Origin: an uncultured Thermoanaerobaculia bacterium
Lineage (GTDB): Bacteria > Acidobacteriota > UBA4820 > DSQY01
NCBI GenBank assembly: GCA_964537405.1
Contig: CAZIBS010000002.1
Coordinates: forward strand, 1 to 61,287
DNA: 61,287 nt
Direction of reading: 5' to 3'
In this document: piece by piece, positions 3,639-58,718 of the stretch
How positions within the stretch are numbered: position 1 is the stretch's first letter
Layout: each line of letters opens with the position of its first letter
Notes under the pieces: model-generated
Seen by the model: only the letters and a program-made list of their open reading frames with translations
Database searches by the model: none
Told to the model about the DNA's origin: nothing
Position numbers and translations under genes: made by a program

Positions 3639-6600
3639 ATGAAAAAAATAGTCGCCGTTCTACTGCTGATTGTTGGAATGGGGACCGTACTTTTTGCTTC
3701 CGGAAAAGCGCGTTCCGGCCTTCCTGCGCGCTACCGGCTTCAAAGAGCCGTAGCCAAGGGAGAACTCCGGAAGGTCGAGAATCTGCTGGCCTTGAATCCC
3801 GGCCTGGACGTGTCCGGGTTTCACCCGCCACCGACGATGGTGGCGGCCAGGCGGGGAGATATTGCCATCCTTAACGCGCTGGTCTCCTTTGGCTTTGACC
3901 CTCTCGAAAAGGGAATGCTCAGGATCGGGAAAAACGCCTTCTACGGCACGGCTCTCTGCGCGGCTGCGGGGGAAGGTCACCTCGACGTCGTAAAGTACCT
4001 GGTTGAAGGCTGCAATGCCTCCGTGGATGGACAGGAGTTGATGCCCGACGGCAGGCAGGACGGCTGGACCCCGCTGGAATGGGCGGCCTTCAACGGAAAG
4101 TTGGAGGTGTGTAGGTACCTTCTGAAAACCGGCGCGAGCGTTTCCGTGAAAGACGTGGATGGGCGTACGGCGCTATACGTCGCGGCTGGGAGCGGCAGGC
4201 TTGATGTTGCGCGACTGCTCCTGACCGTCGGCGCGGATGCAGCCGCCAAAGACGTGAACGAAAACACGCCGCTCCAGATGGCGGCATTTAGCGGTTCCGT
4301 CGGCCTCTGCCGCCTTTTACTATCGAAAGCACCGGGGGCCTTGAACGCCGCCGGTAAAAATGGACTGACGCCGCTACACTATGGTGCGGGCGCCGGGAAG
4401 ACGGATGTGTGCGAAGCCTTGCTGGCCGCGGGAGCCAAAGTCAACGCAAGAGACAAGCAAAATCGGACCCCCCTGTATCTGGCCGCCACCGGCGGTTACC
4501 TGGAAACATGCCAAGTGCTCGTAAAACACGGGGCGGACGTCATGGCGGCCTCCGGGTTGGGCCTGACGCCGCTTCACCGGGCCGCGATTTCAGGGAACGG
4601 CGCCCTCTGCGAGTTCCTTCTTACCAAGGGGGCGGATATCAAGGCCAAGAGCAGGTACGGCTATACCCCGCTGGACCTGGCCGCACGGCAGAATAAAACG
4701 GGGGCTCTACGGGTTCTGCTGGTTCACGGTGCGAATGTAAAAGCCACGTCCAGAGAGGGGTTTACTCCTCTTCACGTCGCTATCATGAACAGACATTCGG
4801 CGGAGGCGCGGATGCTGCTTCAGTGGGGCGCCGATCCGAACGCGCGCGACTGGGACGGCTGGACGCCGCTTCACTGGGCCTGCGCACTCTTTAGTGCCAA
4901 ACAGAGCTTTGCTTTCGCAAAGGAGGCAAAAAAGGCTGAGAAAAAGGCCCCGGAGGAGGGAATGGTCCGGGTCCTCATTGCGGCCGGAGCAAAGGTCAAC
5001 GCCGTAACCAATTCGGGTGATACGCCACTGATCCTCGCCGCGTCCTCCGGCGACGAAGAGGGCGTAAGGGTGCTCCTGAAGACCGGTGCCGATCCCAACG
5101 CGGCGAATTCGAGGGGGCGGACGCCGCTTGATATGGCTTACCGTCTTAGGTTCGGAGGCGGCCCTATAGCGAAGATGTTGAAGGATGCCGGCGCCGTTGA
5201 AGTCAGGCCCAGCCTGGCAACGCTGGACAAAAAGCTTTTCAGGGCGATGCAGATGGGGGATCAGGCGGCCTTCGCGGCGGCCCTCGCCGATGGCGCCGAT
5301 CCAAACTCGGAGTACTGGGGAATAAGGGCCCTTAACGAGGCGGTATCATGTGAATCGACCGAAATGAGGCTGCCTGTCTCTGAGCGTAGAAACCGCGATT
5401 TTGTGGACCCGTTACTGGCCGCCGGCGCCGACGTCGACGCCGGTGGCGCGATTGGAAATCCTCCCCTGGAGAATGCGGCGCGGTACGGCAATGTTGCTCT
5501 CGTCAAACTCTTCATCAGGAAAGAGGCCAAGCTCGAAGCGAAAGGCGAGGATGGAGACACTGCCCTATACTCGGCCGCGGCAAGGGGCCACGTAGCCGTT
5601 GTCGGGCTTCTCGCGGAGGCGGGAGCGGACGCCGATGCCAAAGGCGCTCTGGGTTCTACTCCGTTGATGGCTGCGGCCGCCTCCGGTTCGGTGGATACGG
5701 TGAAGTACCTTCTTGACCACGGGGCGGATGTCAATAGCAAGGCATCTTTCGGGTGGTCCGCACTACACGTGGGTGTTTTAGTGCATTCCAGGGCGATTGT
5801 AAGGCTGTTGCTCGACAGGGGCGCGGATCCGGAGGCCATGGCCTCAGGCGGGGCCACTCCGCTTGATTTGGCGGTTTTTTCCGGCGACAATGCCGACGAG
5901 AAACTGCTGCGCGCCAGGGGGGCGCACACGCTTCACAAGGCGAGCATAAACCTCTCCCAGGCCATACGGGAAGGGGACGAAGACAAGCTCAAACGGGCAC
6001 TGGATAACGGCGCTTCCGTGAACCTTGGCGTAATTCCGTTTGTTCCACCGGTCTTCTTGGCAGCCAATGAGGATAAGTGGAAGATGACGGCGGACCTTCT
6101 CCGGAGCGGCGCGGATCCCAATTCGCTGGATTGGCAAAGATCGCCGCTGCTCTTTACACTCGTGCGGTTGAATGCACCGAGGAACCTCCTGGAAATTTGC
6201 CTGGATAAGGGCGCCGACGTAAACACCGGGAACAAAAATGGTTCGACCGTGCTGCTTGAAGCGATCCGGATGGGGCGGCGCGACCTCGTAGAGTTCTTTA
6301 TCCGCGCCGGGGCCGACCTGCTCGTCCGCGATAAGAAGGGACGCTCGGTTCTCGGCCAAAGCTATTACGGCGGTGGATTCGACGCCTCTTTCATCTCTTA
6401 TCTTCTGGACAAGGGCGCCGACATGGAGAACCGCGACAAAGAGGGCAGAACTCCGCTCATCAACTTTACAACCAAAGAGCGCGCCGATCTGCTGAAAGTG
6501 CTCATTGAACGGGGAGCCAACCTGAACGCCGCTGACAATGACGGAAATACGGCTCTTCACTTCGCCGCCCGCGAAGGTTGGCAGGATGGCGTAATGATGC

Positions 6601-6734
6601 TTCTCGAAGCGGGCGCCGATGCCTCACTCAAGAACAAGGACGGGTTGAGCCCTATCGGAGAAGCCTTCGATAGTGGTAAGAGGCGAATCGCCGACCTCAT
6701 CCGCCTCTACAAACTGGTTCCACGGCCCGGGTAG
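3639..6734 (+). CDS. ankyrin-repeat protein with N-terminal signal peptide (1031 aa)
   Basis: Signal-like N-terminus MKKIVAVLLLIVGMGTVLFASG. The ~33-aa ankyrin consensus (G.TPLH.AA..G....V..LL..GAD.NA.D) is repeated along almost the whole length, with more than 20 units by eye. Confidence 0.9.
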   Translation: MKKIVAVLLLIVGMGTVLFASGKARSGLPARYRLQRAVAKGELRKVENLLALNPGLDVSGFHPPPTMVAARRGDIAILNALVSFGFDPLEKGMLRIGKNAFYGTALCAAAGEGHLDVVKYLVEGCNASVDGQELMPDGRQDGWTPLEWAAFNGKLEVCRYLLKTGASVSVKDVDGRTALYVAAGSGRLDVARLLLTVGADAAAKDVNENTPLQMAAFSGSVGLCRLLLSKAPGALNAAGKNGLTPLHYGAGAGKTDVCEALLAAGAKVNARDKQNRTPLYLAATGGYLETCQVLVKHGADVMAASGLGLTPLHRAAISGNGALCEFLLTKGADIKAKSRYGYTPLDLAARQNKTGALRVLLVHGANVKATSREGFTPLHVAIMNRHSAEARMLLQWGADPNARDWDGWTPLHWACALFSAKQSFAFAKEAKKAEKKAPEEGMVRVLIAAGAKVNAVTNSGDTPLILAASSGDEEGVRVLLKTGADPNAANSRGRTPLDMAYRLRFGGGPIAKMLKDAGAVEVRPSLATLDKKLFRAMQMGDQAAFAAALADGADPNSEYWGIRALNEAVSCESTEMRLPVSERRNRDFVDPLLAAGADVDAGGAIGNPPLENAARYGNVALVKLFIRKEAKLEAKGEDGDTALYSAAARGHVAVVGLLAEAGADADAKGALGSTPLMAAAASGSVDTVKYLLDHGADVNSKASFGWSALHVGVLVHSRAIVRLLLDRGADPEAMASGGATPLDLAVFSGDNADEKLLRARGAHTLHKASINLSQAIREGDEDKLKRALDNGASVNLGVIPFVPPVFLAANEDKWKMTADLLRSGADPNSLDWQRSPLLFTLVRLNAPRNLLEICLDKGADVNTGNKNGSTVLLEAIRMGRRDLVEFFIRAGADLLVRDKKGRSVLGQSYYGGGFDASFISYLLDKGADMENRDKEGRTPLINFTTKERADLLKVLIERGANLNAADNDGNTALHFAAREGWQDGVMMLLEAGADASLKNKDGLSPIGEAFDSGKRRIADLIRLYKLVPRPG

Positions 6735-9292: not shown

Positions 9293-9514
9293 TCCGTCTC
9301 AGCCCGCCTGAACCGGGGTTCCCGTTGTTGCAACAACGAAGATTCGTCCATTGTAGCGGGTAGATCGCTCCATCATGTCATGCCGGTGTCTATCCGGAAA
9401 CCCGCATGAGAACAAGCGAAGTTGCCGAGCGAGCTTCAAACTTAAGCAACAATGATTTAAGCGTCTGTTTCAGGAAGCGCTTCGTTTTTCTTTTACCAAA
9501 AAGCAGGCGACCGG

Positions 9515-12759: not shown

Positions 12760-12765
12760 TTGCCA

Positions 12766-12946
12766 AAATTCCGGGATTGAAACGTCCGGGGCTTCGAATC
12801 GCCGGCGCTTCTGCTTTGTCAGCCTTTGGCCTCCGGCTCCTCCATGTACGCAGGTACTATTCCGTAGCGGAGGCCCCGGCTTTCGCGCCGGGCGGCCCAA
12901 TCCGCGCGGAACGCGCCTTTCTCCCTCCCTTCGGTCGGGCGGCAGG
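12766..12946 (+). repeat. member of the dispersed intergenic element family (about 181 nt) in an ORF-free convergent gap
   Basis: It starts with AAAATTCCGGGATTGAAACGTCC. It contains GGAACGCGCC (compare GGAACGCGCGCC at 2436-2447) and ends with CCTTCGGTCGGGCGGCAGG, which is related to the CCTCGGTTAGGCGGTGG end motif. It is rich in GC stems, including two hairpins with a CGAAG loop on the reverse strand just downstream. Confidence 0.4.
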
Positions 12947-13896: not shown

Positions 13897-13910
13897 GCCC
13901 CACCTCCTTG

Positions 13911-13926
13911 GTTTCCGTCCGGAAAC
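13911..13926. promoter_or_regulatory. palindrome GTTTCC-N4-GGAAAC at the predicted start of the sigma-54 transcript
   Basis: Perfect 6+6 inverted repeat immediately downstream of the -12 element at 13938. The same arrangement occurs at 28423-28438. Confidence 0.5.
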
Positions 13927-13936
13927 GGCCCTTCTC

Positions 13937-13952
13937 AGCAATCTCCGTGCCT
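13937..13952 (-). promoter_or_regulatory. sigma-54 (-24/-12) promoter
   Basis: The reverse strand reads AGGCACGGAGATTGCT, with GGCACG, 4 nt, then TTGC and GG-N10-GC spacing. It lies about 40 nt upstream of the GTG at 13896. Confidence 0.6.
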
Positions 13953-14051
13953 CCCCGTGCGTTGCACCTACCTGCGGGCTTTCTTGTGCAAGGTACAAAC
14001 GCACGTCCCCTCGTAACCCCCTGCTTTCCCTGACCTTGCGAAAAGCTCCTC

Positions 14052-14068
14052 TTTCCCGAATCGGAAAC
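14052..14068. promoter_or_regulatory. palindrome TTTCC-N6-GGAAAC, candidate enhancer (UAS)
   Basis: Centred about 109 nt upstream of the -24 GG of the 13937-13952 promoter. The counterpart at 28554-28570 sits at a similar distance. Confidence 0.4.
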
Positions 14069-14365
14069 TTCGCTTGTCCTCATCCTGATTCCCGGATGAA
14101 CACTCCTTAGGAAGCCAGTATAATCTCCGCGGCTCCTCTCAACAAGAACGTCGCGGAGTCCCGCAGAATGGTGTCGGATTCCGGACAAGCCGGAATGACG
14201 CCTTTTCCCTTATTGCCTCACCGTCTCCCTGTTGCTCCATACGGTTTTGTTTCTTCTCTTGATAACGTCCATCCTTCCCGTTCCGTATTACGACCGGCCT
14301 TTATGCTACTATGGCCCTTGGATTGACCAGCTACCCGGATCAATCCGGTGGTCGGAAGGCGGCAC

Positions 14366-21696: not shown

Positions 21697-21822
21697 TTCA
21701 TCTCCCGAAACACGGTAGAAAGGCGCTTGGGCTCCTGTCTATCGCCGGTCATGGATAATTTCCGAACCGGGAACCCCGCTTCTCTCTCCGGATAGACATA
21801 GGATCCAAGTCCCATGCGAAAA

Positions 21823-21838: not shown

Positions 21839-22211
21839 TGATGAAGTGAAGCTGATTTTTGCTTCCAGGGGAAAAGGGTAGAGTAGAGAGCCGGAGCGGT
21901 TTTTTAGGGTCGGGCCTAACGGTTGCCGCCCCTTTCGTCCGGCAGTGCCTCACCAACCTCTCCATGTTTGGCTCTAACCCTCCCTCATCAAACCGTGCGT
22001 GCGGTTTTCCCGCACAAGGCTTTCCGATGCCCTTCACCGCAAGGTATGCATATTCGCCAATCCCGCCGTCGTCGACACATTGTAAAGCCCGCACCTGTTG
22101 CATAAGTCCCCGCTTGGAAATCGTTTGTATCCTGCGCCTCCGGTTCTTATCTTGTGTCTCTTACGAAAGTGGGTCCGAACACGCTATTACACATATCCTT
22201 ACAATGGCCCT

Positions 22212-23576
22212 TCACAGGTCGAACTTCTTGAGACGGTAGCGGAGGGTGTCGCGTGTAAGGCCGAGGAGTTTGGCGCTGCGCGTCTGGTTCCCCCCGGTTC
22301 GGCTGAGAGCTTGCTCGATCAGGCTGCGTTCCATCTCTTCGAGTATGACGCCTCCCGGTGGAAGAACGAACACGTGTTCCGCCGACCGGTAGGGATTCTG
22401 GACGAGGATGTCCATGGGAAGGTCGGTTCTGTCGATGAGTTCCTTGTCTTCGAGAATCATTACCTTTTCTATGAGATTCTTTAGCTCACGGATGTTGCCT
22501 GGCCATGGATGCTCGATTAGTACCCGCATCGCGGCGTTGGTTACGCCGCGCGTATTCTTCTTGAACGCCCTGTCAAAGTTACCGATGAAGTACTTCACCA
22601 GAAGCGGGATGTCCTCCGGACGTTCCCTGAGGGGGGGAATCGTAATGGGGATCACCTTCAGTCTGTAGTATAGGTCCTTACGAAAAACGCCCGAAGCGAC
22701 GGCCTGCCTGAGGTCGGCGCTGGAAGCGGCGATGACCCGCACGTCAATGTGTATGTCGCGGGTGCCGCCCGCCCTCTTAAACCTCCGGTCTTCCAGGAAC
22801 CTGAGCAGTTTGAACTGGATGCTCGCACCAATCCGGCCTATTTCGTCCAGGAAGGCCGTTCCCCCGTCGGCGAGTTCGAATAGGCCCTTCTTGGCCGTGG
22901 TCGCCCCTGGAAATACGCCCTTTTCGTATCCGAAGAGTTCATAATCAAGGTTCTCCTCGGACATGGCCGAACAGGCCACGCTCATGAATGGTTTTTTTGT
23001 ACGATCGCTGGCGAAGTGAATCGTGTTAGCCATAAGGTCTTTGCCCGTTCCGCTCTCGCCCTGCAACAGTATGGTTGTGGCTGAAGAAGCAGCTATCTTC
23101 TCAATGAGTTGGAAGATCTCCATCATGCGTGCGTTCTTGCCCACCAAGTTGCCGACGCCGAAGCGTCTTTCCTGGACTTTGCGATAGCGATTCAACTCCC
23201 GCTTGAGCGAGGTGTTTTCGAGGGCTTTCTTCACGCTGATGAGAAGTTCTTCAAATTCGAATGGTTTATTCAGGTAATCGAAAGCGCCGAGCTTCATGGC
23301 TTCGATAGCGCTTTCAACCGTACTGTAAGCGGTCATCATGATAACCGGAAGTGGCTCAAAGTGCGGAAGTATGTTCCTTAAAACCTTCAGCCCATCCATG
23401 TCCGGGAGGCGGTAGTCGAGTAGAACCAGATCCACGTCCTTTTCCTCCAGGGCCTTGAGGGCGTCTTCTCCCCGGTCGGTTTCAAGGGTTTCGTAACCGG
23501 CCTTTTTAAGATGATTAGCCAGAGACCACCGGATCAGCTTTTCGTCCTCGACCAGGAGAATAACTTCCTTTGCCAC
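22212..23576 (-). CDS. sigma-54-dependent response regulator (NtrC family: REC-AAA+-Fis HTH)
   Basis: REC (DLVLLDYRLPDMDG), Walker A (GESGTGKD) and a C-terminal HTH (QTRSAKLLGLTRDTLRYRLKKF) are present. The sigma-54 contact loop reads GVFPGA instead of GAFTGA. The GTG start overlaps the kinase stop. Confidence 0.95.
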   Translation of the reverse strand: MAKEVILLVEDEKLIRWSLANHLKKAGYETLETDRGEDALKALEEKDVDLVLLDYRLPDMDGLKVLRNILPHFEPLPVIMMTAYSTVESAIEAMKLGAFDYLNKPFEFEELLISVKKALENTSLKRELNRYRKVQERRFGVGNLVGKNARMMEIFQLIEKIAASSATTILLQGESGTGKDLMANTIHFASDRTKKPFMSVACSAMSEENLDYELFGYEKGVFPGATTAKKGLFELADGGTAFLDEIGRIGASIQFKLLRFLEDRRFKRAGGTRDIHIDVRVIAASSADLRQAVASGVFRKDLYYRLKVIPITIPPLRERPEDIPLLVKYFIGNFDRAFKKNTRGVTNAAMRVLIEHPWPGNIRELKNLIEKVMILEDKELIDRTDLPMDILVQNPYRSAEHVFVLPPGGVILEEMERSLIEQALSRTGGNQTRSAKLLGLTRDTLRYRLKKFDL

Positions 23577-28329: not shown

Positions 28330-28422
28330 GCCAGAATCCTTATAAAAGCAAATTGTAACAGAGTTTAATACCCCGGTGCAAAGAGAATGCGGGGTTAAAG
28401 CAATTTAAGGAGCTTGTAGCTG

Positions 28423-28438
28423 GTTTCCATCCGGAAAC
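28423..28438. promoter_or_regulatory. palindrome GTTTCC-N4-GGAAAC at the predicted start of the sigma-54 transcript
   Basis: Same position relative to the -12 element as 13911-13926. Confidence 0.5.
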
Positions 28439-28448
28439 AGCTCTTTTC

Positions 28449-28464
28449 CGCAAGCTCCGTGCCT
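28449..28464 (-). promoter_or_regulatory. sigma-54 (-24/-12) promoter
   Basis: The reverse strand reads AGGCACGGAGCTTGCG with GG-N10-GC spacing. It lies about 120 nt upstream of the carboxyltransferase ATG at 28329. Confidence 0.6.
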
Positions 28465-28553
28465 GCCTGTGCGTTGCACGCAGACAGGTCAATCCGCGGG
28501 CGTCCTTGTGCGACGCATTGAAATACGCCTCCACGCAAGTCTTTGATTTCCTT

Positions 28554-28570
28554 GTTTCCGTATTGGAAAC
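28554..28570. promoter_or_regulatory. palindrome GTTTCC-N5-GGAAAC, candidate enhancer (UAS)
   Basis: Centred about 99 nt upstream of the -24 GG at 28462-28463. Confidence 0.4.
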
Positions 28571-28708
28571 ATCCTTACGCCTACATCCGACATTTTCGGA
28601 TATGCACCAACTAATAGTTACGGGTGAAATCAGCGGGATGAAGGCGGGACACAACACCCCGCCTCCTTTACATAACCTGCCGAATCAGAGAAACCACTAC
28701 TGCCGACG

Positions 28709-29002
28709 CTATTTCCTGAGCGCGTCTTTCAAGGTCTTGGAAGGCTTGAAAGCCGGATAACGGCGTGTGGGCACCTTCACTTTGCTCCCGGTCTTTGGAT
28801 TGCGCGCCTGCCTGGCCGTTCTTTCCCTGACGTAAAACGTCCCGAACCCGGAGATGATAACCTTTTCTCCCAGCTTCAGCGTAGTCGAGATGAGCCCCTG
28901 ACCAGGTTTGGAATCCGTAAGAGCTTCGAGGACCGCTCGTACGTCTTTCTGTGGCAGGCCCGTCACTTCCGCAAGGTTTTTGATCAATTCTGTTTTCGTC
29001 AT
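28709..29002 (-). CDS. hup: HU/IHF-family DNA-binding protein
   Basis: 97 aa: MTKTELIKNLAEVTGLPQKDVRAVLEAL...GFGTFYVRERTARQARNPKTG. It has a basic C-terminal extension. Confidence 0.9.
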   Translation of the reverse strand: MTKTELIKNLAEVTGLPQKDVRAVLEALTDSKPGQGLISTTLKLGEKVIISGFGTFYVRERTARQARNPKTGSKVKVPTRRYPAFKPSKTLKDALRK

Positions 29003-29059: not shown

Positions 29060-29295
29060 GGGGTTAGTTTATCGTAGGTGCATGTTCCACGCAAGAGCCG
29101 CCCCAAAATCCCGCGATGGGTGATCGAACGGCCGGGAAAGACTCTGCGGTCCATGGTTTTGTGCCTATGGCGCTTCACCCCAAGGGATTGGGGGCCTTCG
29201 GGCCGGAGGCCAAGAAAGCGCCGAGGGTGGGGTGGGAATGGCCCTCCCCGTTCCAGGAGATGCTTATTTCCCCGGGCCGCGATTAAAAGACGCAG

Positions 29296-29318
29296 ACGTT
29301 TCAATCGCGGAATTCGGG
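29296..29318 (-). repeat. TTCC-N5-TGAAAC family motif forming the 5' arm of a 13-bp hairpin
   Basis: The reverse strand reads CCGAATTCCGCGATTGAAACGTC. CGCGATTGAAACG pairs with CGTCTTTTAATCGCG just downstream. Further downstream, TTGGCCTCCGGC and CCCTCGG resemble parts of the element at 12766-12946. Confidence 0.35.
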
Positions 29319-29359
29319 CCGCCCGGGGAATTTGCATCGTCTCTCGCCGGGGGCGGTAT

Positions 29360-32067: not shown

Positions 32068-32244
32068 CCATAATCCACCGCCTAACCGAGGACCGAGGGC
32101 AGCGGGGAAGGCTTAGATGCCAGGCGCCGAGACGATTTGAGCGCAGGCGTAGTAGCGCTACGTTGAGCATCAAATCGGCGAAAGCAACACCGCAGATGAG
32201 CCTTATCCCGCAGTACGAATCCCGGTGCAGGTGGTGAATTATGG
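32068..32244. repeat. 177-nt rod-folding intergenic element, copy 1 (MITE-like element or structured RNA; strand undetermined)
   Basis: 174 of 177 nt are identical to 58542-58718. It has 16-nt terminal inverted repeats and internal nested stems. Confidence 0.85.
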
Positions 32245-38975: not shown

Positions 38976-39106
38976 CCAAACCCTCCTTGAGATAGACCTG
39001 TTATTCCTGCTTTCCACCGCGCCGGTTTTTTTATTCCCACCCTCAGGGAACAATGATACTACTTCAATGCTTCACGCACCGGAATGACGCCCTCCGGTTG
39101 CTACTA

Positions 39107-39122
39107 TTGGCATTAACCTTGC
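39107..39122 (+). promoter_or_regulatory. sigma-54 (-24/-12) promoter
   Basis: TGGCATTAACCTTGCA has GG-N10-GC spacing with TGGCAT at -24 and TTGCA at -12. It lies 36 nt upstream of the ATG at 39158. Confidence 0.6.
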
Positions 39123-39157
39123 ATCTTCTGTATCCTTTTGGTTGGAGGTGTGCCAAT

Positions 39158-40588
39158 ATGGCTCATGGGACAATTGTCATCCTGGAAGACGAAGCCGAAA
39201 ATCTCAGGAGCCTCACGCGCGCCCTGGAAAAGGTGGGCTACGATGTTCACGGCTACAGGGATCCCAGGAAAGGCATGGCTTTTCTTGACGACCACCGGAA
39301 TGTCGATATCGTTCTGACCGACATCAGAATGCCGGCCATGGACGGCATGGCCGTACTGAAGCACGTCAAGGAAAACCGGCCCGGCCTGCCCGTGCTTCTT
39401 ATAACCGCTTTCGGTTCCGTCGAGTCCGCCGTGGGAGCGATGAAGGTAGGAGCGGACGACTACCTGGCGAAACCGATCGACCTCTACGAACTCAGGCGCC
39501 GCGTCGAGGCACTCGTTGAAAAGCACCGCCTTGCCATGCGGGTCGATGAACTTCAAGCAAGGTTGGACGAACGCTTCGGCTTTGAGAACATCGTCGGAAC
39601 GAGTCGCCCCATGCAGGAACTCTTCCAGCAGATAAAGATGGTGGCTCCTACCAGGGCTACGGTTCTCATCAACGGTGAGTCGGGAACCGGCAAGGAACTG
39701 ATAGCCAACGCCATCCACCACAACTCCGACCGCAAGCGCAATCGCTTCCTGCCGATCAACTGCGCCGCGATTCCCGCCACCCTCATGGAGAGCGAACTAT
39801 TCGGCCACGAAAGGGGCTCTTTTACGGGCGCGGAGAAAACCCACCCCGGTAAGTTCGAACAGGCCGACCGCGGAACGCTCTTCCTGGACGAGATCGGGGA
39901 GTTGCCCATCGGCCTGCAGGCCAAATTGTTGCGAGTCCTTGAAGAGCGCATGGTTACCCGCGTGGGAAGTTCCCACCCCATACCGGTGGACGTCCGCATA
40001 GTTACCGCGACCAATCGCAATATCGAGGAAATGACGGCCGCCGGGGATTTTCGCAAAGACCTGTTTTACCGTCTCAAGGTCGTCGAGCTGCGCATCCCTC
40101 CTCTCAGGGAAAGAAAGGAAGACATTCCCCTCCTGGCCCACAGCTTCCTGGAGCAGTTAAACCGGGAGCACGGCAGAACTATAGAGAAAATTTCACCGGA
40201 GGCGCTCTCCGCCCTGGTCGCCTACCCCTGGCCCGGAAACGTAAGAGAGCTGAGAAACGTGATCGAGAGAACGGTTGTCTTCTGCCCGGAAAACGAGATA
40301 AGAATGACGCACCTTCCCGTTGAACTGCAAAGCGGCGTCGCCTTGACCACCCACGCCGGTCTACCTTCCCTACACGCGGCCGCCTCCACCGGTTTTGACG
40401 TCAGAGGCGAGGTGGTGCCGCTGGAAGAGATGGAAAGGCGCGCTATCTTACGAGCCCTTGAAGAAACCGGCGGGAACAAGACCCGGGCCGCCCGCCTGCT
40501 CGGCATCGGCCTGAGAACACTCCACCGTAAACTAAAGCAGTACCGGTATGATAACGCAACCATAAATTCAGAGAGGAGTATGCAATGA
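39158..40588 (+). CDS. sigma-54-dependent response regulator (NtrC family), no adjacent kinase
   Basis: REC (DIVLTDIRMPAMDG), Walker A GESGTGKE, GSFTGA loop and Fis-type HTH (KTRAARLLGIGLRTLHRKLKQY). The ATG at 39158 follows GGAGGTG. Confidence 0.95.
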   Translation: MAHGTIVILEDEAENLRSLTRALEKVGYDVHGYRDPRKGMAFLDDHRNVDIVLTDIRMPAMDGMAVLKHVKENRPGLPVLLITAFGSVESAVGAMKVGADDYLAKPIDLYELRRRVEALVEKHRLAMRVDELQARLDERFGFENIVGTSRPMQELFQQIKMVAPTRATVLINGESGTGKELIANAIHHNSDRKRNRFLPINCAAIPATLMESELFGHERGSFTGAEKTHPGKFEQADRGTLFLDEIGELPIGLQAKLLRVLEERMVTRVGSSHPIPVDVRIVTATNRNIEEMTAAGDFRKDLFYRLKVVELRIPPLRERKEDIPLLAHSFLEQLNREHGRTIEKISPEALSALVAYPWPGNVRELRNVIERTVVFCPENEIRMTHLPVELQSGVALTTHAGLPSLHAAASTGFDVRGEVVPLEEMERRAILRALEETGGNKTRAARLLGIGLRTLHRKLKQYRYDNATINSERSMQ

Positions 40589-42096
40589 AATTCTTCAAAT
40601 CACTCGTGCTGGCCGCCGTCGGCGCACTCCTTATACTGGCCGGCTTCGCCTTCGCGCAGTTCAAGAACGTCAGTACGCCCACGGCCCACGCGGCAACCAA
40701 GATCGCCAGCGACACGCAACCGGTGTTGAGAGGCGCCCCAAGCTTCGCCGACATTGCACAGAGAGTCAACCCGGCCGTTGTCTCCATCACCGCCATTGTC
40801 ATCCAAAAGAATAGACAGCCCAACAACCACGGCAACTTTCCAGGCCCGATGAACCCCTTCCAGTTTTTCTTCGGAACGCCCCACCCACAGATGCCGCGGG
40901 GAACTCCGCCCGTTCAGGAATCCGGGGGAAGCGGATTCATTATCAGTCCGAACGGTTATATCCTTACAAATAATCACGTGGTAAAGGGAGCTTCCAAGGT
41001 TACGGTCCGGCTTGACGACGATAGGAGCTTTACGGCCAAAATCGTTGGAACGGACGCGGACACCGATATTGCACTCCTCAAGATCAATGCTGAAAACCTG
41101 CCGACCCTTCCCATGGGCAATTCGGACGCAATACGCCAGGGAGACTGGGTTATGGCCGTCGGGAACCCTCTCATGTACAGCCATACCGTTACGGTGGGCG
41201 TTATCTCCGCCAAAGGACGTCATCTCTCTTCAAATTCTCTCGACAACTTTCTCCAGACAGACGCGGCCATTAACTTTGGAAACTCCGGCGGGCCCCTCGT
41301 AGACACGTCTGGAAAGGCCATAGGCATAAATACCGCGATCACGCGCAGCGACTTCAGGGGACGAATGGTCGAGGGCATCGGCTTCGCCATTCCTATCAAT
41401 ATCGTAAAAGAGGAGCTTCCGCAGCTCAAGAGCGGACACCCCGTCAAACGCGGCTACATGGGCGTACGGGTCGGTCCGGTCGACCATGACGCAATCGCTT
41501 ACTACAAGAGCACCTTCGGTATTAAGATAAACGGCGGAGCGCTGATCCAGAGTGTCGACGAAGGCACGCCGGCGGCTAAAGCCCACCTTGAGAAGGGCGA
41601 CATAATCGTGAGCGTCGACGGCAAGAAGATAAAGGACAGCAGTGAGCTTCCAGGTATCGTATCCGCTTACGCCCCCGGGAAGACCATAAAACTCGGCATT
41701 ATCAGAAAGGGACACCGCAAGTCGATCAAGATTACACTGGGCGACCGCGCTGTCGCTCTTAACGGTGGCTTTTCCACCAAAGGCGGAAAGAAAGGCAAGC
41801 ATTCCGCCAAGAACGTCCTGGGCATTATGGTGCAAGAGATCACGCCGCAGGCCAGGATGATGTACAGGATTCCCCAGGCTCTGAACGGGGTTGTCATCAC
41901 TTCGGTTGACCCGAAATCCAGCGCCTTCTCCAAGGGCATCAGGGAAGGCATGGTGCTCAACGAACTGGACGGCAAGACGATCAACAGCGTGGAAGACTTC
42001 CAGTCCGCCGTGGCAAAGGTTAAGAAAGGAGACATGGTTTCCGTCTACCTGCCTTCGGCCCATGGTGGAATCTACATGTACTTCCCCGCCGATTAA
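40585..42096 (+). CDS. htrA: periplasmic serine endoprotease DegP/HtrA (Do family, two PDZ domains)
   Basis: Signal peptide present. Catalytic triad motifs TNNHVV, DIALLKI and GNSGGPLVD are present. The ATG overlaps the regulator stop (ATGA). Confidence 0.95.
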   Translation: MKFFKSLVLAAVGALLILAGFAFAQFKNVSTPTAHAATKIASDTQPVLRGAPSFADIAQRVNPAVVSITAIVIQKNRQPNNHGNFPGPMNPFQFFFGTPHPQMPRGTPPVQESGGSGFIISPNGYILTNNHVVKGASKVTVRLDDDRSFTAKIVGTDADTDIALLKINAENLPTLPMGNSDAIRQGDWVMAVGNPLMYSHTVTVGVISAKGRHLSSNSLDNFLQTDAAINFGNSGGPLVDTSGKAIGINTAITRSDFRGRMVEGIGFAIPINIVKEELPQLKSGHPVKRGYMGVRVGPVDHDAIAYYKSTFGIKINGGALIQSVDEGTPAAKAHLEKGDIIVSVDGKKIKDSSELPGIVSAYAPGKTIKLGIIRKGHRKSIKITLGDRAVALNGGFSTKGGKKGKHSAKNVLGIMVQEITPQARMMYRIPQALNGVVITSVDPKSSAFSKGIREGMVLNELDGKTINSVEDFQSAVAKVKKGDMVSVYLPSAHGGIYMYFPAD

Positions 42097-46003: not shown

Positions 46004-48361
46004 ATGAACCGGAGACTGACTAAGACATTGATCGTTCTTCTTGCGCTCGTCGCGGCCGTCACTCCGGTGGCCCAAACCGTCGGCGTAAAACCCGGGAAAG
46101 TCACAAAAAAAAAGGTTCTTATCGAAAAAATCGTCCTTGAAGGCAATGAGCGCTTAACCCAGAAAGCCTTCTTGGCGCTTACGAGCCTGCGTGTCGGTGA
46201 ACCGTACGACAAGGCCCGGGTTATTAAAGCGTTCCACAAAATCTGGGAGTCCGGTCTTCTCGACAATCTATCCATCGACAGCAAACCGGGAAAGACCGGG
46301 GTCATACTCACCTTCCACATCAAGGAACGCCCCATCCTGGCCTCCATTGACTACACGGGGAGCAAAACGCTGACCAGCACAACCGTCCTGGATAAGATCA
46401 AAGAGAACAAGGCCAACATCAAGTCGGGCACCGTTCTGGACTACGCCAAGATCAAGAAGCTGGAGGCGGCACTGCGCTTCATGGCGGCGGAAAAGGGGTA
46501 CCCCGACGCTCTGGTGACCTCCAAGCTCCAATCCATGGGGCCTGCCCAGGTTGCCCTTACCATAAACGTGAAGCAAGGACCAAAGGCCAGAATAGAGAAG
46601 GTTAAGTTCATGGGCGTACACGCCTTTTCCCAGCGCAAACTGCGCCTCACTCTCAAGAAAACCCGCTCTCACTGGTGGCTTTCGTGGGCCACGCGCCACG
46701 ACATCTACTCCGAGAGCAGGTATTACAAAGACGTGAAAAAACTTCGCAAACTTTACGAATCCAGGGGCTACCTCGACGTGGATATCGGCGATCCAATTAT
46801 AGACAGCCACATGAACAGGAAGAAAACGAAAAAGTGGCTGGTACTGACGATCCCCATCACCGAAGGCGTTTCCTACAAGTTGGGCACGATATCCTTCAAA
46901 GGGAACCACGTTTTCACAAGTGATGAACTCCACAAGATGATCCTGCTCAAAAAAGGAAAAACTCTGAACAAACTAGCCATCGACTACGTGCGCAAAGGTA
47001 TCGAAGCCAGGTACGGAGAAAAGGGCTACATTTACGCCACCGCCACCCCCATCTTTGATAAACACCCCGGCAAGAAGATCGCCAACGTTACCTTTTTAAT
47101 CACCGAGGACCATGTTTACTACGTAAACAGGATTGAGTTCTACGGCAACACCTCCACCCGCGACTACGTACTCAGGCGGGAGATGGAGATCTACGAACAG
47201 GAACTCTTCAACTACGTAAAGTACAAGCGTGGACTCTACCTCTTAAAACAGCGGGCTATCTTCACGATCAAGAAGGATCCGATTATTACGAAGGTTCCCA
47301 ACACAAACACGGTTAACATCAAGATCGTGGGAGAGGAGGCCAATAAGAACGAGTTGCTTTTCGGCGGTGGTTACGGTGGAATTAACGGTTTCTTTATCTC
47401 CGGCTCTTTCAAGACCTACAACTTCATGGGAATGGGGACGACCCTCTCCCTCAACGCGGAGGTGGGGAAATACCAAAAGCTGTACTCCATAAATTACTCC
47501 GACCCGTGGCTCTTCGGAAAACGCATAGGGGGCAACTTCTCCGTCTTCAATTCCCAATTGGACTACCTGGAGTTCAAACAGGGATCAAAGGGCGGTTCCA
47601 TGGGGATTTCCTTTCCCCTTGGGGACTTTGCCTACTGGACCGTCGGCTACCGTTATGACCGCTCCGACGTTACGGGTATCAGCACCAATTACATCAGCCC
47701 CGACTACGAGGCGTACCTGAACAACTCCGCTACCTCGTCGGTATTGCTGGGCATCGGTTTCAACACCGTCAACAATCCCTTCAGACCGATGATGGGTTCG
47801 TCCGCCTCCTTGAACGCCACCGTTGCCGGGGGTCCCGTAGGCGGCGATAATGATTTCATTAAGTCGACTTTTGACGGCTCGTTTTACCTACCTACCTTCA
47901 GGAAACAGAATCTGGCCTGGCGGCTGAGCATGGGATACATTACCGCCTACGACGGGCACCCGATTCCCATCTGGGAACGATTCTTCCTCGGCGGACAAAG
48001 CTCACTGAGGGGCTTCGCCATCCGCTCAATCTATCCAATGACTAAAGACGCGCGCTACTTCCTTGATCCCTACACGGGAACTATCGAAGGCGGAAACCGC
48101 TTCTACCTGCTTAATAACGAGTACGTCTTTCACCTTACGGAGTATGTGGACGTGGCGCTATTCATGGACATCGGCAACACCTACCACGAGCGGCAGAAGA
48201 TGCAGCTGTCGAATTACAGGGCCAATGCGGGTGTTGAACTGCGCTTCTTCATACCCACCTTCAACGTACCTCTGCGACTAATTTATGCTTCGAATCTCAA
48301 ACCACGGCCTAACGATGACTTCAGCAGCTTTCAAATCTCCATCGGTCTGACGTTCCAATGA
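46004..48361 (+). CDS. bamA: outer-membrane protein assembly factor BamA
   Basis: Signal peptide from the ATG at 46004 (MNRRLTKTLIVLLALVAAV), POTRA repeats and a C-terminal 16-strand barrel. It is followed by skp-lpxD-fabZ-lpxA, the conserved context. Confidence 0.95.
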   Translation: MNRRLTKTLIVLLALVAAVTPVAQTVGVKPGKVTKKKVLIEKIVLEGNERLTQKAFLALTSLRVGEPYDKARVIKAFHKIWESGLLDNLSIDSKPGKTGVILTFHIKERPILASIDYTGSKTLTSTTVLDKIKENKANIKSGTVLDYAKIKKLEAALRFMAAEKGYPDALVTSKLQSMGPAQVALTINVKQGPKARIEKVKFMGVHAFSQRKLRLTLKKTRSHWWLSWATRHDIYSESRYYKDVKKLRKLYESRGYLDVDIGDPIIDSHMNRKKTKKWLVLTIPITEGVSYKLGTISFKGNHVFTSDELHKMILLKKGKTLNKLAIDYVRKGIEARYGEKGYIYATATPIFDKHPGKKIANVTFLITEDHVYYVNRIEFYGNTSTRDYVLRREMEIYEQELFNYVKYKRGLYLLKQRAIFTIKKDPIITKVPNTNTVNIKIVGEEANKNELLFGGGYGGINGFFISGSFKTYNFMGMGTTLSLNAEVGKYQKLYSINYSDPWLFGKRIGGNFSVFNSQLDYLEFKQGSKGGSMGISFPLGDFAYWTVGYRYDRSDVTGISTNYISPDYEAYLNNSATSSVLLGIGFNTVNNPFRPMMGSSASLNATVAGGPVGGDNDFIKSTFDGSFYLPTFRKQNLAWRLSMGYITAYDGHPIPIWERFFLGGQSSLRGFAIRSIYPMTKDARYFLDPYTGTIEGGNRFYLLNNEYVFHLTEYVDVALFMDIGNTYHERQKMQLSNYRANAGVELRFFIPTFNVPLRLIYASNLKPRPNDDFSSFQISIGLTFQ

Positions 48362-48546
48362 GCAAAGACTCGCGCGCCTTTCTATATCTCAACCTGTCGA
48401 ATTACAGGGCCGACGCCGGTGTTGAACCGCGCTTCTTCATACCCACTTTCAACGTACCTCTGAGACCAATCTATGCTTCGAATCTCAAACCACAACCTAC
48501 CGATGACTTCAGCCACTTTCAAATCTCCATCGGTCTAACGTTTTAA
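48358..48546 (+). pseudogene. tandem duplicate of the bamA 3' end, readable as a 62-aa ORF
   Basis: 48393-48542 matches 48206-48354 at roughly 90 percent identity by hand count. The ATG overlaps the bamA stop (ATGA). The product repeats the last ~50 BamA residues with two Leu-to-Pro changes and ends in ...GLTF. Confidence 0.6.
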
Positions 48547-54440: not shown

Positions 54441-54629
54441 CCGGAATCTTTTCAATCAAAGTCATCATTTTTGGTACGTCTCTTGCATATCAATACTTCT
54501 CAAATCCCCCCTCCATTCCTCATTTATAGCCCCTACGGGGGCTTTCTTTCTTGTTCCTCTTTCCAAGGCGTGTCAAATCCGACACAACGAGACACGGATG
54601 GCAGGGAAAAGGAGACGCTAATCCTAATC

Positions 54630-54650
54630 AATCTCCGCGATCGAAACGCC
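54630..54650 (+). repeat. variant of the TTCC-N5-TGAAAC family motif
   Basis: AATCTCCGCGATCGAAACGCC versus AAATTCCGCGATTGAAACGCC at 2353-2373 (18 of 21 identical). Confidence 0.35.
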
Positions 54651-54663
54651 GTTTTTCCGGATA

Positions 54664-58541: not shown

Positions 58542-58718
58542 CCATAATCCACCGCCTAACCGAGGACCGAGGGCGGCGGGGAAGGCTTAGATGCAAGGCG
58601 CCGAGACGATTTGAGCGCAGGCGTAGTAGCGCTACGTTGAGCATCAAATCGGCGAAAGCAACACCGCAGATGAGCCTTATCCCGCGGTACGAATCCCGGT
58701 GCAGGTGGTGAATTATGG
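58542..58718. repeat. 177-nt rod-folding intergenic element, copy 2
   Basis: 174 of 177 nt are identical to 32068-32244, in the same orientation. Confidence 0.85.

Follow-up and report, generated by a model that had tools for sequence, protein, structure and literature searches.

Two sigma-54-type promoter motifs in a Thermoanaerobaculia genome lie in copies of a dispersed palindromic mosaic

How does the same block of DNA, carrying a near-consensus sigma-54 promoter motif and a palindrome, come to stand in front of two different genes of one genome? The question is raised by a 61,287-nt stretch of contig CAZIBS010000002.1 from an uncultured Thermoanaerobaculia bacterium of the Acidobacteriota (hereafter the window), where a 58-nt block is found twice on the reverse strand: at locus A (28421-28478), before an operon that begins with a carboxyltransferase gene, and at locus B (13909-13966), before a gene for a TPR lipoprotein. 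An earlier note on this DNA took the block for a duplicated promoter cassette and its GTTTCC/GGAAAC palindromes for binding sites of the NtrC-type regulator encoded in the carboxyltransferase operon, which would co-regulate both transcription units. Our analysis keeps the duplication and gives it another meaning. Because the cassette is the end of a mosaic scattered in at least a dozen copies and differing between strains, it reads as a mobile repeat that may donate a promoter, and not as a set of sites for the neighbouring regulator. We consider it probable that both blocks belong to a lineage-specific palindromic mosaic of ~190 bp, similar to miniature inverted-repeat transposable elements (MITEs) and bacterial interspersed mosaic elements (BIMEs), one subfamily of which owes its sigma-54 motif to a nested insertion.

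The likeness of the two loci is easily confirmed. In an ungapped alignment the blocks agree at 50 of 58 positions, and the likeness breaks off sharply on both sides; a repeat comparison of the same pair also gives 59 nt at 86%. Exact GGCACG-N4-TTGC occurs in the window at 28450-28463 and 13938-13951 only, and one-mismatch or looser matches elsewhere are at chance level. None of the eight mismatches between A and B falls on the 22 positions that make up the two boxes (-24 and -12) and the arms of the palindrome (hypergeometric P = 0.016). With the C of TTGC counted as -12, the predicted +1 (28438 and 13926) is at both loci the first G of GTTTCC-N4-GGAAAC, and a second palindrome is indeed present ∼100-110 nt upstream of -24 (28554-28570 and 14051-14068), with centres at -124 (GTTTCC-AATAC-GGAAAC) and about -134 (GTTTCC-GATTCG-GGAAAG). 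The reported excess of TTCC-N4-6-GGAAAC holds for the four sites (7 strand matches against 0.81 expected), a number that none of 100 shuffles reaches. Full GTTTCC-N3-7-GGAAAC is found at three exact sites in the window against 0.03 expected. The fourth site, 14051-14068, has one arm mismatch and is notable by its position only, since by count alone (1 seen, 1.4 expected) it is at chance. That the four palindromes belong together, and that the block is a duplicated unit with a sigma-54 -24/-12 motif facing a gene at both loci, can be upheld.

The duplication is longer than the block. A gapped alignment carries the similarity of A and B, in weaker form, over ∼190 nt, and further copies are known from fragmentary contigs of the source metagenomes, aligned to the locus together with their 30-nt loose ends. 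At locus B the contigs have a single-copy depth of ∼7. The terminal palindrome with the -12 region (13909/11 to 13943/45) reaches a depth of ∼147, with 13 contigs per run and 2-5 differences, and the left end with the internal palindrome (14015-14104) one of 32-52, with ∼5-7 contigs per run; the interior of copy B (13952-14014) is single-copy. In most of these other copies the internal palindrome is a perfect GTTTCC-GATTC-GGAAAC; most of the depth has T>G at 14052 and C>T at 14055. The resemblance between copies breaks off in every case at 13909-13911 and at 14104, the flanks beyond are unrelated, and contigs on locus A agree with this. Similarity among copies extends 35-90 nt past the palindromes and therefore speaks for common descent, not for a shared binding site.

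Two partial copies, C and D, also lie in the window. The left terminus of copy C, GGTGTCTATCCGGAAAC, agrees with the reverse complement of the right terminus of A in 15 of 17 positions, a match that none of 1000 shuffles gives; the '+1 palindrome' is thus probably a terminal inverted repeat as well. The inverted repeat at 21759-21774, which the earlier note had listed along with the palindromes, belongs to copy D, the fourth and partial copy of the left end of the element. Copy A has a terminator-like hairpin of the upstream HU gene (28643-28663) on one side and, on the other, a conserved promoter of sigma-70 type that belongs to the carboxyltransferase operon. At locus B a sigma-70-type promoter precedes the copy, the Shine-Dalgarno sequence and GTG start (13896) of the TPR lipoprotein gene follow it, and AGGAG borders it on both sides (the right one at 13904-13908), which may be a target-site duplication. 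Subtraction of the element and of one AGGAG leaves TATACT-N9-AGGAGGTG-N4-GTG, the layout of the orthologous sites. The promoter at 14117-14145 is probably the ancestral one of the TPR gene. The coordinates of all parts are collected in Table 1.

Table 1. Copies and parts of the repeat in the window, with adjoining promoters and the regulator proposed earlier as its binder
Feature	Position	Strand	Basis or remark
Copy A, mosaic repeat, 186 bp, TG...CA	28421..28606	-	boundaries by homology to copy B
Left-terminal inverted repeat, copy A, ATATCCG-N7-CGGATGT	28583..28603	-	degenerate copy of the terminal repeat
Internal upstream palindrome, copy A, GTTTCC-AATAC-GGAAAC	28554..28570	-	left end point of 132-nt deletion in strain X6
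Putative integration host factor (IHF) site, consensus match AATCAAAGACTTG	28536..28548	-	copy A only; no counterpart in copy B
Block GCACAAGGACGCCCGCGGATTGA	28489..28511	-	common to copy B (13968-13989) and copies without the nested 27-mer
Nested 27-nt palindrome CCTGTCTGCGTG-CAA-CGCACAGGCAGG	28462..28488	-	contains TGCAACGCAC; last GG is the -24 GG
Sigma-54-type motif GGCACG-GAGC-TTGC, predicted +1 28438	28450..28463	-	motif match
Right-end module, copy A: CACGGAG-N-TTGC, 11-nt spacer, terminal palindrome, CA	28421..28461	-	metagenome contig alignments
Terminal palindrome, copy A, GTTTCC-GGAT-GGAAAC	28423..28438	-	probable right terminal inverted repeat; would be first 16 nt of a sigma-54 transcript
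Sigma-70-type promoter TTGCAC-N17-TACAAT, carboxyltransferase operon	28352..28381	-	conserved in relatives
Response regulator with sigma-54-interaction domain, GVFPGA in place of GAFTGA	22212..23576	-	binder proposed by the earlier note
Partial copy D, shortened left end with GTTCCC-GGTTC-GGAAA, upstream of RND/OEP operon	21759..21798	-	sequence comparison
Sigma-70-type promoter TTGTTG-N17-TATACT upstream of copy B	14117..14145	-	sequence
AGGAG directly left of copy B	14103..14107	-	same 5 nt directly right
Copy B, mosaic repeat, 194 bp	13909..14102	-	similarity breaks of metagenome contigs
Internal palindrome, copy B, GTTTCC-GATTCG-GGAAAG	14051..14068	-	sequence
Partial nested palindrome, 18 nt, GTGCAACGCACGGGGAGG	13950..13967	-	gives GG of the -24 box
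Sigma-54-type motif GGCACG-GAGA-TTGC, predicted +1 13926	13938..13951	-	motif match
Terminal palindrome, copy B, GTTTCC-GGAC-GGAAAC, then CA, AGGAGGTG, GTG start	13911..13926	-	sequence
Partial copy C, left end only, between convergent genes	9385..9428	+	0 of 500 shuffles

Relatives lack the element at both places. Four of their loci (L010-L013) have the same order of HU, carboxyltransferase, hydratase, kinase and regulator genes, and the intergenic regions contain neither a sigma-54 motif nor such a palindrome; what they share with the window is a sigma-70-type promoter, TTGCxx-N17-TAyAaT, just upstream of the start codon. Six loci with TPR orthologues (L014-L019) have sigma-70-type promoters in intergenic regions of 50-175 nt without the element, against ∼450 nt before the TPR gene in the window. 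The 113 kb of syntenic loci contain no TTTCC-N3-7-GGAAA site, and no good match to the sigma-54 motif stands at a promoter position in them.

Strains of the same lineage differ as well. In X6, a run of a different study whose flanks are ∼97% identical to the window, a contig of 1550 nt runs from 28432 straight on to 28565, leaving out 132 nt; at the joint, the 7 nt TGTTTCC fit either side. Locus A of this strain thus keeps the left end and one palindrome and is without the loop of the internal palindrome, the IHF-like site, the nested 27-mer and the sigma-54 motif. At its locus B the element is present minus ∼17 nt within 13950-13973, among them the -24 GG (13950-13951), and a sigma-54-type right end is found on another contig of the strain. 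A more distant relative, in run X8, has 144 nt in place of 333 nt at locus A and no element. Contigs show presence better than absence; the X6 and X8 joints nonetheless lie inside long contigs. The sigma-54 motif is accordingly not conserved: orthologous operons and TPR genes are without it, and in X6 it is missing or broken.

The middle of the block has a history of its own. Contigs on 28440-28640 reveal that the segment from 28455/61 to 28488/91 is a repeat in its own right, present in 27-35 contigs per run, 15-18 of which are at least 99% alike; all their flanks are different, and the length of the palindrome loop varies. Copy A has the filled site, ...GCCCGCGGATTGA / 27-mer / CACGGAGCTTGC, its left flank ending in GATTGA, and other ∼190-bp copies have empty sites in which the same left flank goes straight to the right module, ...GCCCGCAGATTGA / CACGGAGATTGC (that is, GATTGA / CACGGAGATTGC). 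As both filled and empty sites exist, the 27-mer is a discrete insertion. Its last GG converts CACG-N4-TTGC into AGGCACG-N4-TTGC.

The 27-mer is also found elsewhere. It is very abundant in eight metagenome runs, at depths unrelated to that of the window genome (∼12000 in X5), and IMG/VR contigs of 52% and 66% G+C contain an exact match. A search of viral contigs with the loop left free found 33 copies in 29 loci (L031-L059) with G+C of 0.46-0.68. The length is 27, 30 or 33 nt, a multiple of three, in 32 of the 33, at least 20 lie within long open frames, and the palindrome is without a stop codon in any frame. One contig (L031) has two copies in frame, one in a capsid-domain protein and one in the terminase large subunit; in two others (L032, L059) copies of the 27-mer are nested in copies of the 27-mer. 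Two phage contigs with flanks 88% identical contain the same in-frame insertion, with 26 of 27 nt of the 27-mer. We considered that the 27-mer might be a technical artefact, and this was ruled out by the diverged phages with the same in-frame insertion, on the strength of which it is natural and inherited. The 30-nt form had no real match in collections of cultured phages and plasmids, and a literature search for the palindrome sequence found no paper.

How good is the resulting promoter motif? Against TGGCACG-N4-TTGCW, copy A (AGGCACG-GAGC-TTGCG) has two mismatches and copy B (AGGCACG-GAGA-TTGCT) one, with the GG and GC doublets 10 nt apart. By our own estimate (2 x 190 / 4^10) exact GGCACG-N4-TTGC is expected ∼4e-4 times per 190-bp element, both strands taken together. 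The sigma-54-type junction is present in no fewer than six copies (A and B, then three contigs on locus A and one on locus B), and at least seven have TTGAC(A/G)C-N-GAGATTGC with no GG. The motif faces a gene start in both window copies, and in the loose ends of two of the three further sigma-54-type copies a Shine-Dalgarno sequence and a start codon follow within 30 nt (one ATG is clear, one TTG tentative). The genome does use sigma-54, as seen from two genes for AAA+ activators and from the canonical promoter at 39108-39123; the window itself does not include rpoN. A working promoter at A and B is plausible from these features. If it fires, the predicted transcript starts with a 5'-terminal hairpin (-6.4 to -8.2 kcal/mol from the predicted first nucleotide), since the motif points outward through the right terminal repeat. 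Other identities of the right module, as a sigma-70 or extracytoplasmic function (ECF) sigma factor promoter, a terminator or a CRISPR repeat, were rejected: there is no -10 box at workable spacing, no T-run and no regular spacing, and the loop length is variable.

On the reading that we prefer, the two 58-nt blocks are the right-hand parts of two copies of a non-coding repeat of ∼190 bp, built in order from a left terminal inverted repeat, an internal GTTTCC-N5-GGAAAC, a variable interior and a right module of 35-41 nt that ends in GTTTCC-N4-GGAAAC-CA. The family is dispersed in a dozen or more copies and is gained, lost and shortened between strains, partly via recombination at the palindrome arms. 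In a subfamily of at least six copies, A and B included, the unrelated 27-nt palindrome is inserted at ...GATTGA^CACGGAG-N-TTGC and its terminal GG produces the near-consensus AGGCACG-N4-TTGC, directed outward through the right terminal repeat. A copy landing upstream of a gene would then add a candidate enhancer-dependent promoter to a gene of the sigma-70 type, the recipients here being the carboxyltransferase-hydratase-kinase-regulator operon and the TPR lipoprotein gene. The sequence comparisons show the repeat family and where it ends, that relatives lack it, that strains differ in it, the nested insertion and the match to the motif; from these we infer transposition as the way of spread, promoter activity of the motif and a putative role of the internal palindrome as an activator site.

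Several observations weigh against this picture. The left termini of A and B are degenerate (P = 0.03-0.24) and make only a weak terminal repeat, the flanks of copy A show no target-site duplication, and no gene for a transposase or a REP-associated tyrosine transposase (RAYT; REP, repetitive extragenic palindrome) lies within the window. Folding of the whole element, in which the internal palindrome pairs with the terminal one, is only moderately better than that of shuffles (z about -3). Copy numbers are summed k-mer depths of fragmentary Logan contigs, for which origin from one genome cannot be proved, and the depth of the right module in run X7 greatly exceeds that of the genome, so that other organisms also carry it. 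In viral contigs the right module had no match. Finally, since many family members are without the -24 GG, the junction could have yielded the sigma-54 match incidentally, with CACG-N4-TTGC pre-existing and the GG alone supplied by the insertion.

The last point leads to the alternative that these are ordinary units of the REP/BIME type without any promoter role, the sigma-54 match being a silent accident of two joined repeats. We hold this to be doubtful but deserving of attention. The many members with TTGAC(A/G)C-N-GAGATTGC and no GG, the derivation of the GG from the nested insertion, the sister strain that does without either promoter and the sigma-70-type promoters retained by both genes are all as it would have them. 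It has to set aside the low expected frequency of the exact motif given above, the six or more members of the subfamily, the gene starts faced by the motif in both window copies and in two of three others (one of these starts being tentative), and the mismatches between A and B that spare the boxes. At the opposite end stands a bolder view, in which a self-spreading 27-nt palindrome, by supplying the -24 GG, turned the MITE-like element into a working and portable enhancer-dependent promoter; this composite, with a further palindrome at enhancer distance, then moved before at least six genes, rewiring sigma-70 genes to control by sigma-54 and its activators in one strain lineage. We regard it as unlikely in this strong form; the palindrome of 27-33 nt would, under it, be a new kind of ultra-small mobile element, able to persist in frame within phage capsid and terminase genes and to nest in copies of itself.

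The earlier note proposed a regulon in which one regulator, with the operon's own NtrC-type protein as first candidate, would use the palindromes as operators or enhancers and would co-regulate the carboxyltransferase operon and the TPR gene from two sigma-54 promoters. The comparison does not support it, and it now appears improbable. In its favour, the upstream palindromes lie 100-110 nt above -24, a normal enhancer distance (an inverted repeat is found within 80-150 bp upstream, one site per promoter, with spacers of 5 and 6 nt), the N4 spacer puts the half-site centres 10 bp apart as would suit a dimeric helix-turn-helix protein, copy A has an IHF-like site (the IHF consensus being WATCAANNNNTTR), and two activator genes are in the window. 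GAFTGA is, however, the conserved sigma-54 contact, in which the central threonine is key (PMC7057263). With GVFPGA in its place the operon regulator is a poor candidate for a sigma-54 activator, and its orthologues vary at the same positions (GAFEDA, GAFEEA, GAFPDA or GAFTDA). Proteins of this family without GAFTGA, such as NtrC of Rhodobacter capsulatus, act on the housekeeping polymerase, and the regulator of the window may likewise act without sigma-54. Its helix-turn-helix is nearly invariant in relatives whose syntenic 15-kb loci have neither the palindrome nor the promoter. The sequence of the regulator, the sigma-70-type promoters conserved at these genes and the relatives' lack of the cassette jointly speak against it as the binder. 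A single dimeric protein would be hard to reconcile with spacers of 4, 5 and 6 nt, the copies resemble each other 35-90 nt beyond the palindromes, copy C lies between convergent genes where a promoter is not needed, and the sister strain X6 is without both promoters; the palindromes are structural parts of a dispersed repeat. The second activator (39158-40588) has GSFTGA and is a plausible sigma-54 activator by its sequence. Its true start is ATG 39158 (the start at 39053 in the list of open reading frames is probably wrong), a gene for an HtrA-like protease follows (activator and protease together at 39158-42096), and the activator's canonical sigma-54 promoter, TGGCAT-TAACC-TTGCA, lies 35 nt upstream of the ATG; that promoter has no such palindrome, which again does not favour a common regulator.

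A function at the level of RNA, with the +1 palindrome as a 5' stem-loop for transcript stability or for gating of the Shine-Dalgarno sequence, or with the whole element as a family of structured leader RNAs, seems very improbable to us. The predicted first nucleotide is indeed where the hairpin begins. At locus B only 3 nt separate its end from AGGAGGTG, and a sigma-70 transcript of locus B would have the whole element as its leader. Yet the same palindrome is found in untranscribed places (in the upstream copies, at the left terminus, and in copy C between convergent genes), the element of locus A is upstream of the sigma-70 promoter, and Rfam gave no match for either locus at the gathering score or at E <= 1. 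A protein search with the translated element (spurious open reading frames on other copies) also gave no match.

Whether the combination of promoter and palindrome is more general was asked of larger collections. The scan of a genome collection returned only a glnA-to-amt locus of the Methyloceanibacter type (one lineage) and one Desulfuromonadales locus; since about one match is expected there by chance, a general '+1 palindrome' of sigma-54 promoters is without evidence. A metagenome scan for TGCAACGCAC-N4-AGGCACGGAG-N-TTGC had no match, and a second one gave the same two lineages and two chance matches inside genes. In the Methyloceanibacter-type genomes (L001-L005, L007, L008, L020-L025, L028, L030) the sigma-54 promoter stands, by eye, after the end of a glutamine-synthetase-like gene and before a putative ammonium transporter. 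GTTTCC-N5-GGAAAC follows it at the same distance, with invariant arms and a variable loop. The number of lineages with this arrangement equals the chance prediction.

Among known repeats, the BIMEs and REPs of enterobacteria (including RIP and RIB) are extragenic, multi-copy, strain-variable mosaics of imperfect palindromes, some with an IHF site between the units; Correia elements of Neisseria also have an internal IHF site. Our family is similarly a multi-copy, strain-variable mosaic of short palindromic units and other motifs, and its units (16-17, 27 and ∼35 nt) agree with the mosaics of 20-40-nt imperfect palindromes that define REPs and BIMEs, although the copy number is modest. It differs from them in having tens and not hundreds of copies, palindromes that differ in sequence, a defined ∼190-bp unit with probable terminal inverted repeats, a sigma-54-type motif and no RAYT gene seen in the window; unlike REPs, the 27-mer is found also inside genes of phage contigs. 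In line with MITEs, multiple copies have conserved ends and unrelated flanks, and there is presence/absence polymorphism at a site. On symbiotic plasmids of Rhizobium the nifH-type sigma-54 promoter is reiterated with its upstream activator region before different genes. The duplication of a sigma-54-type promoter region before different genes of one genome is common to both cases, but the nifH copies have proven NifA sites and form one regulon, whereas here the activator site is putative and many members have no sigma-54 motif; a literature search for reiterated nifH promoters found nothing pertinent. Stem-loops at the 5' end, as in E. coli ompA, protect mRNA, and the hairpin described here would resemble them in having no unpaired 5' nucleotides at the predicted transcript start. 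Unlike the ompA type it is a terminal repeat of a dispersed element, and stabilisation would be a side effect.

Repeats that carry promoters, and the reuse of promoters, have precedents in Correia elements, enterobacterial repetitive intergenic consensus (ERIC) sequences, REPINs and putative mobile promoters (PMC3575422). Correia elements are presented there as promoter-carrying MITEs of Neisseria. As far as that account goes, they share with our element the non-coding nature, a length of ∼100-200 bp, terminal inverted repeats (probable in ours), a place next to genes and possible outward promoters; their promoters are of the sigma-70 type and the duplicated target is TA, whereas here the motif is of the sigma-54 type and comes from a nested insertion, with a possible duplication of AGGAG at one locus and none visible at the other. 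Putative mobile promoters were defined as sequences of at least 50 nt, at least 80% identical, upstream of unrelated genes in one genome (Matus-Garcia, Nijveen and van Passel 2012; PMC3575422), a definition that fits the A/B pair. That survey left mechanism and sigma type unresolved, while in the present case unit boundaries, empty sites and strain polymorphism are visible. REPINs, inverted doublets of REPs mobilised by RAYT (Bertels and Rainey 2011; PMC3575422, PMC8049555), are, in the terms of these sources, comparable in that paired palindromic units can fold into one long single-strand hairpin. The two palindromes here are, in contrast, in direct order and 130-140 nt apart, with no RAYT known. 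Our literature searches for sigma-54 together with MITE or REP found no sigma-54-type promoter-carrying MITE and no promoter arising from nested repeats.

The window has a G+C content of 58%, the runs that hold it are hydrothermal-vent and marine metagenomes, and the closest homologues of the carboxyltransferase are from Acidobacteriota (79-81% identity). The operon at locus A encodes a carboxyltransferase similar to the beta subunit of methylcrotonyl-CoA carboxylase, an enoyl-CoA hydratase, a PAS histidine kinase and the response regulator with its sigma-54-interaction domain; upstream of the locus are an HU/IHF-type gene (28709-29002) and a gene for a T2SSE/MshEN ATPase. The TPR gene at locus B is divergent from a gene for a DAO oxidoreductase. 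In the spacer between the two another small palindrome, ATTCCGG-CTTGT-CCGGAAT (14178-14196), has raised depth in runs X5 and X7 and is therefore part of yet another dispersed repeat.

Other repeats are not rare in this DNA. The TTCC-N5-TGAAAC motifs at 2353, 12766 and 29318, listed earlier as variants of the palindrome, are genuine repeats of one another but form a separate family of 22-41 nt, AAATTCCGCGATTGAAACG. In the form AAATTCCGCGATTGAAACG(C/T)C it is found at 2347-2375, 12760-12802, 29279-29319 and 54624-54652 and is distinct from the GTTTCC palindromes; two of its copies lie directly after gene ends, and in these a second arm, AATCGC(G)G, follows 18 nt downstream. A repeat of 177 nt occurs at 32068-32244 and, 26 kb away, at 58542-58718 with 98% identity, with a third, partial and inverted copy at 2442-2471. 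It had no Pfam or Rfam match (for Rfam also at E <= 1), and its copy at 32 kb occupies the place of an OmpR-type two-component pair in relatives. Between the regulator gene and the RND/OEP operon, 21878-22024 on the reverse strand matches the group II intron family RF00029 of Rfam (45 bits), has no open reading frame for an intron-encoded protein and probably represents a fragment from the 3' end of an intron. The spacer before a skp-like gene repeats the final 149 nt of bamA with 91% identity (48206-48354 and 48394-48542), and 3639-6734 encodes a protein of 1031 amino acids that consists almost entirely of ankyrin repeats.

For the study of such genomes it follows that a regulon inferred from repeated motifs fails where the motifs belong to dispersed repeats, and that flanking similarity, empty sites and strain polymorphism are ways to separate one from the other. 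The nested 27-nt palindrome, widespread in metagenomes and in frame in phage genes, may merit a study of its own. If the promoter is active, a sigma-54 promoter would have been born at the junction of two nested repeats and would then have spread.

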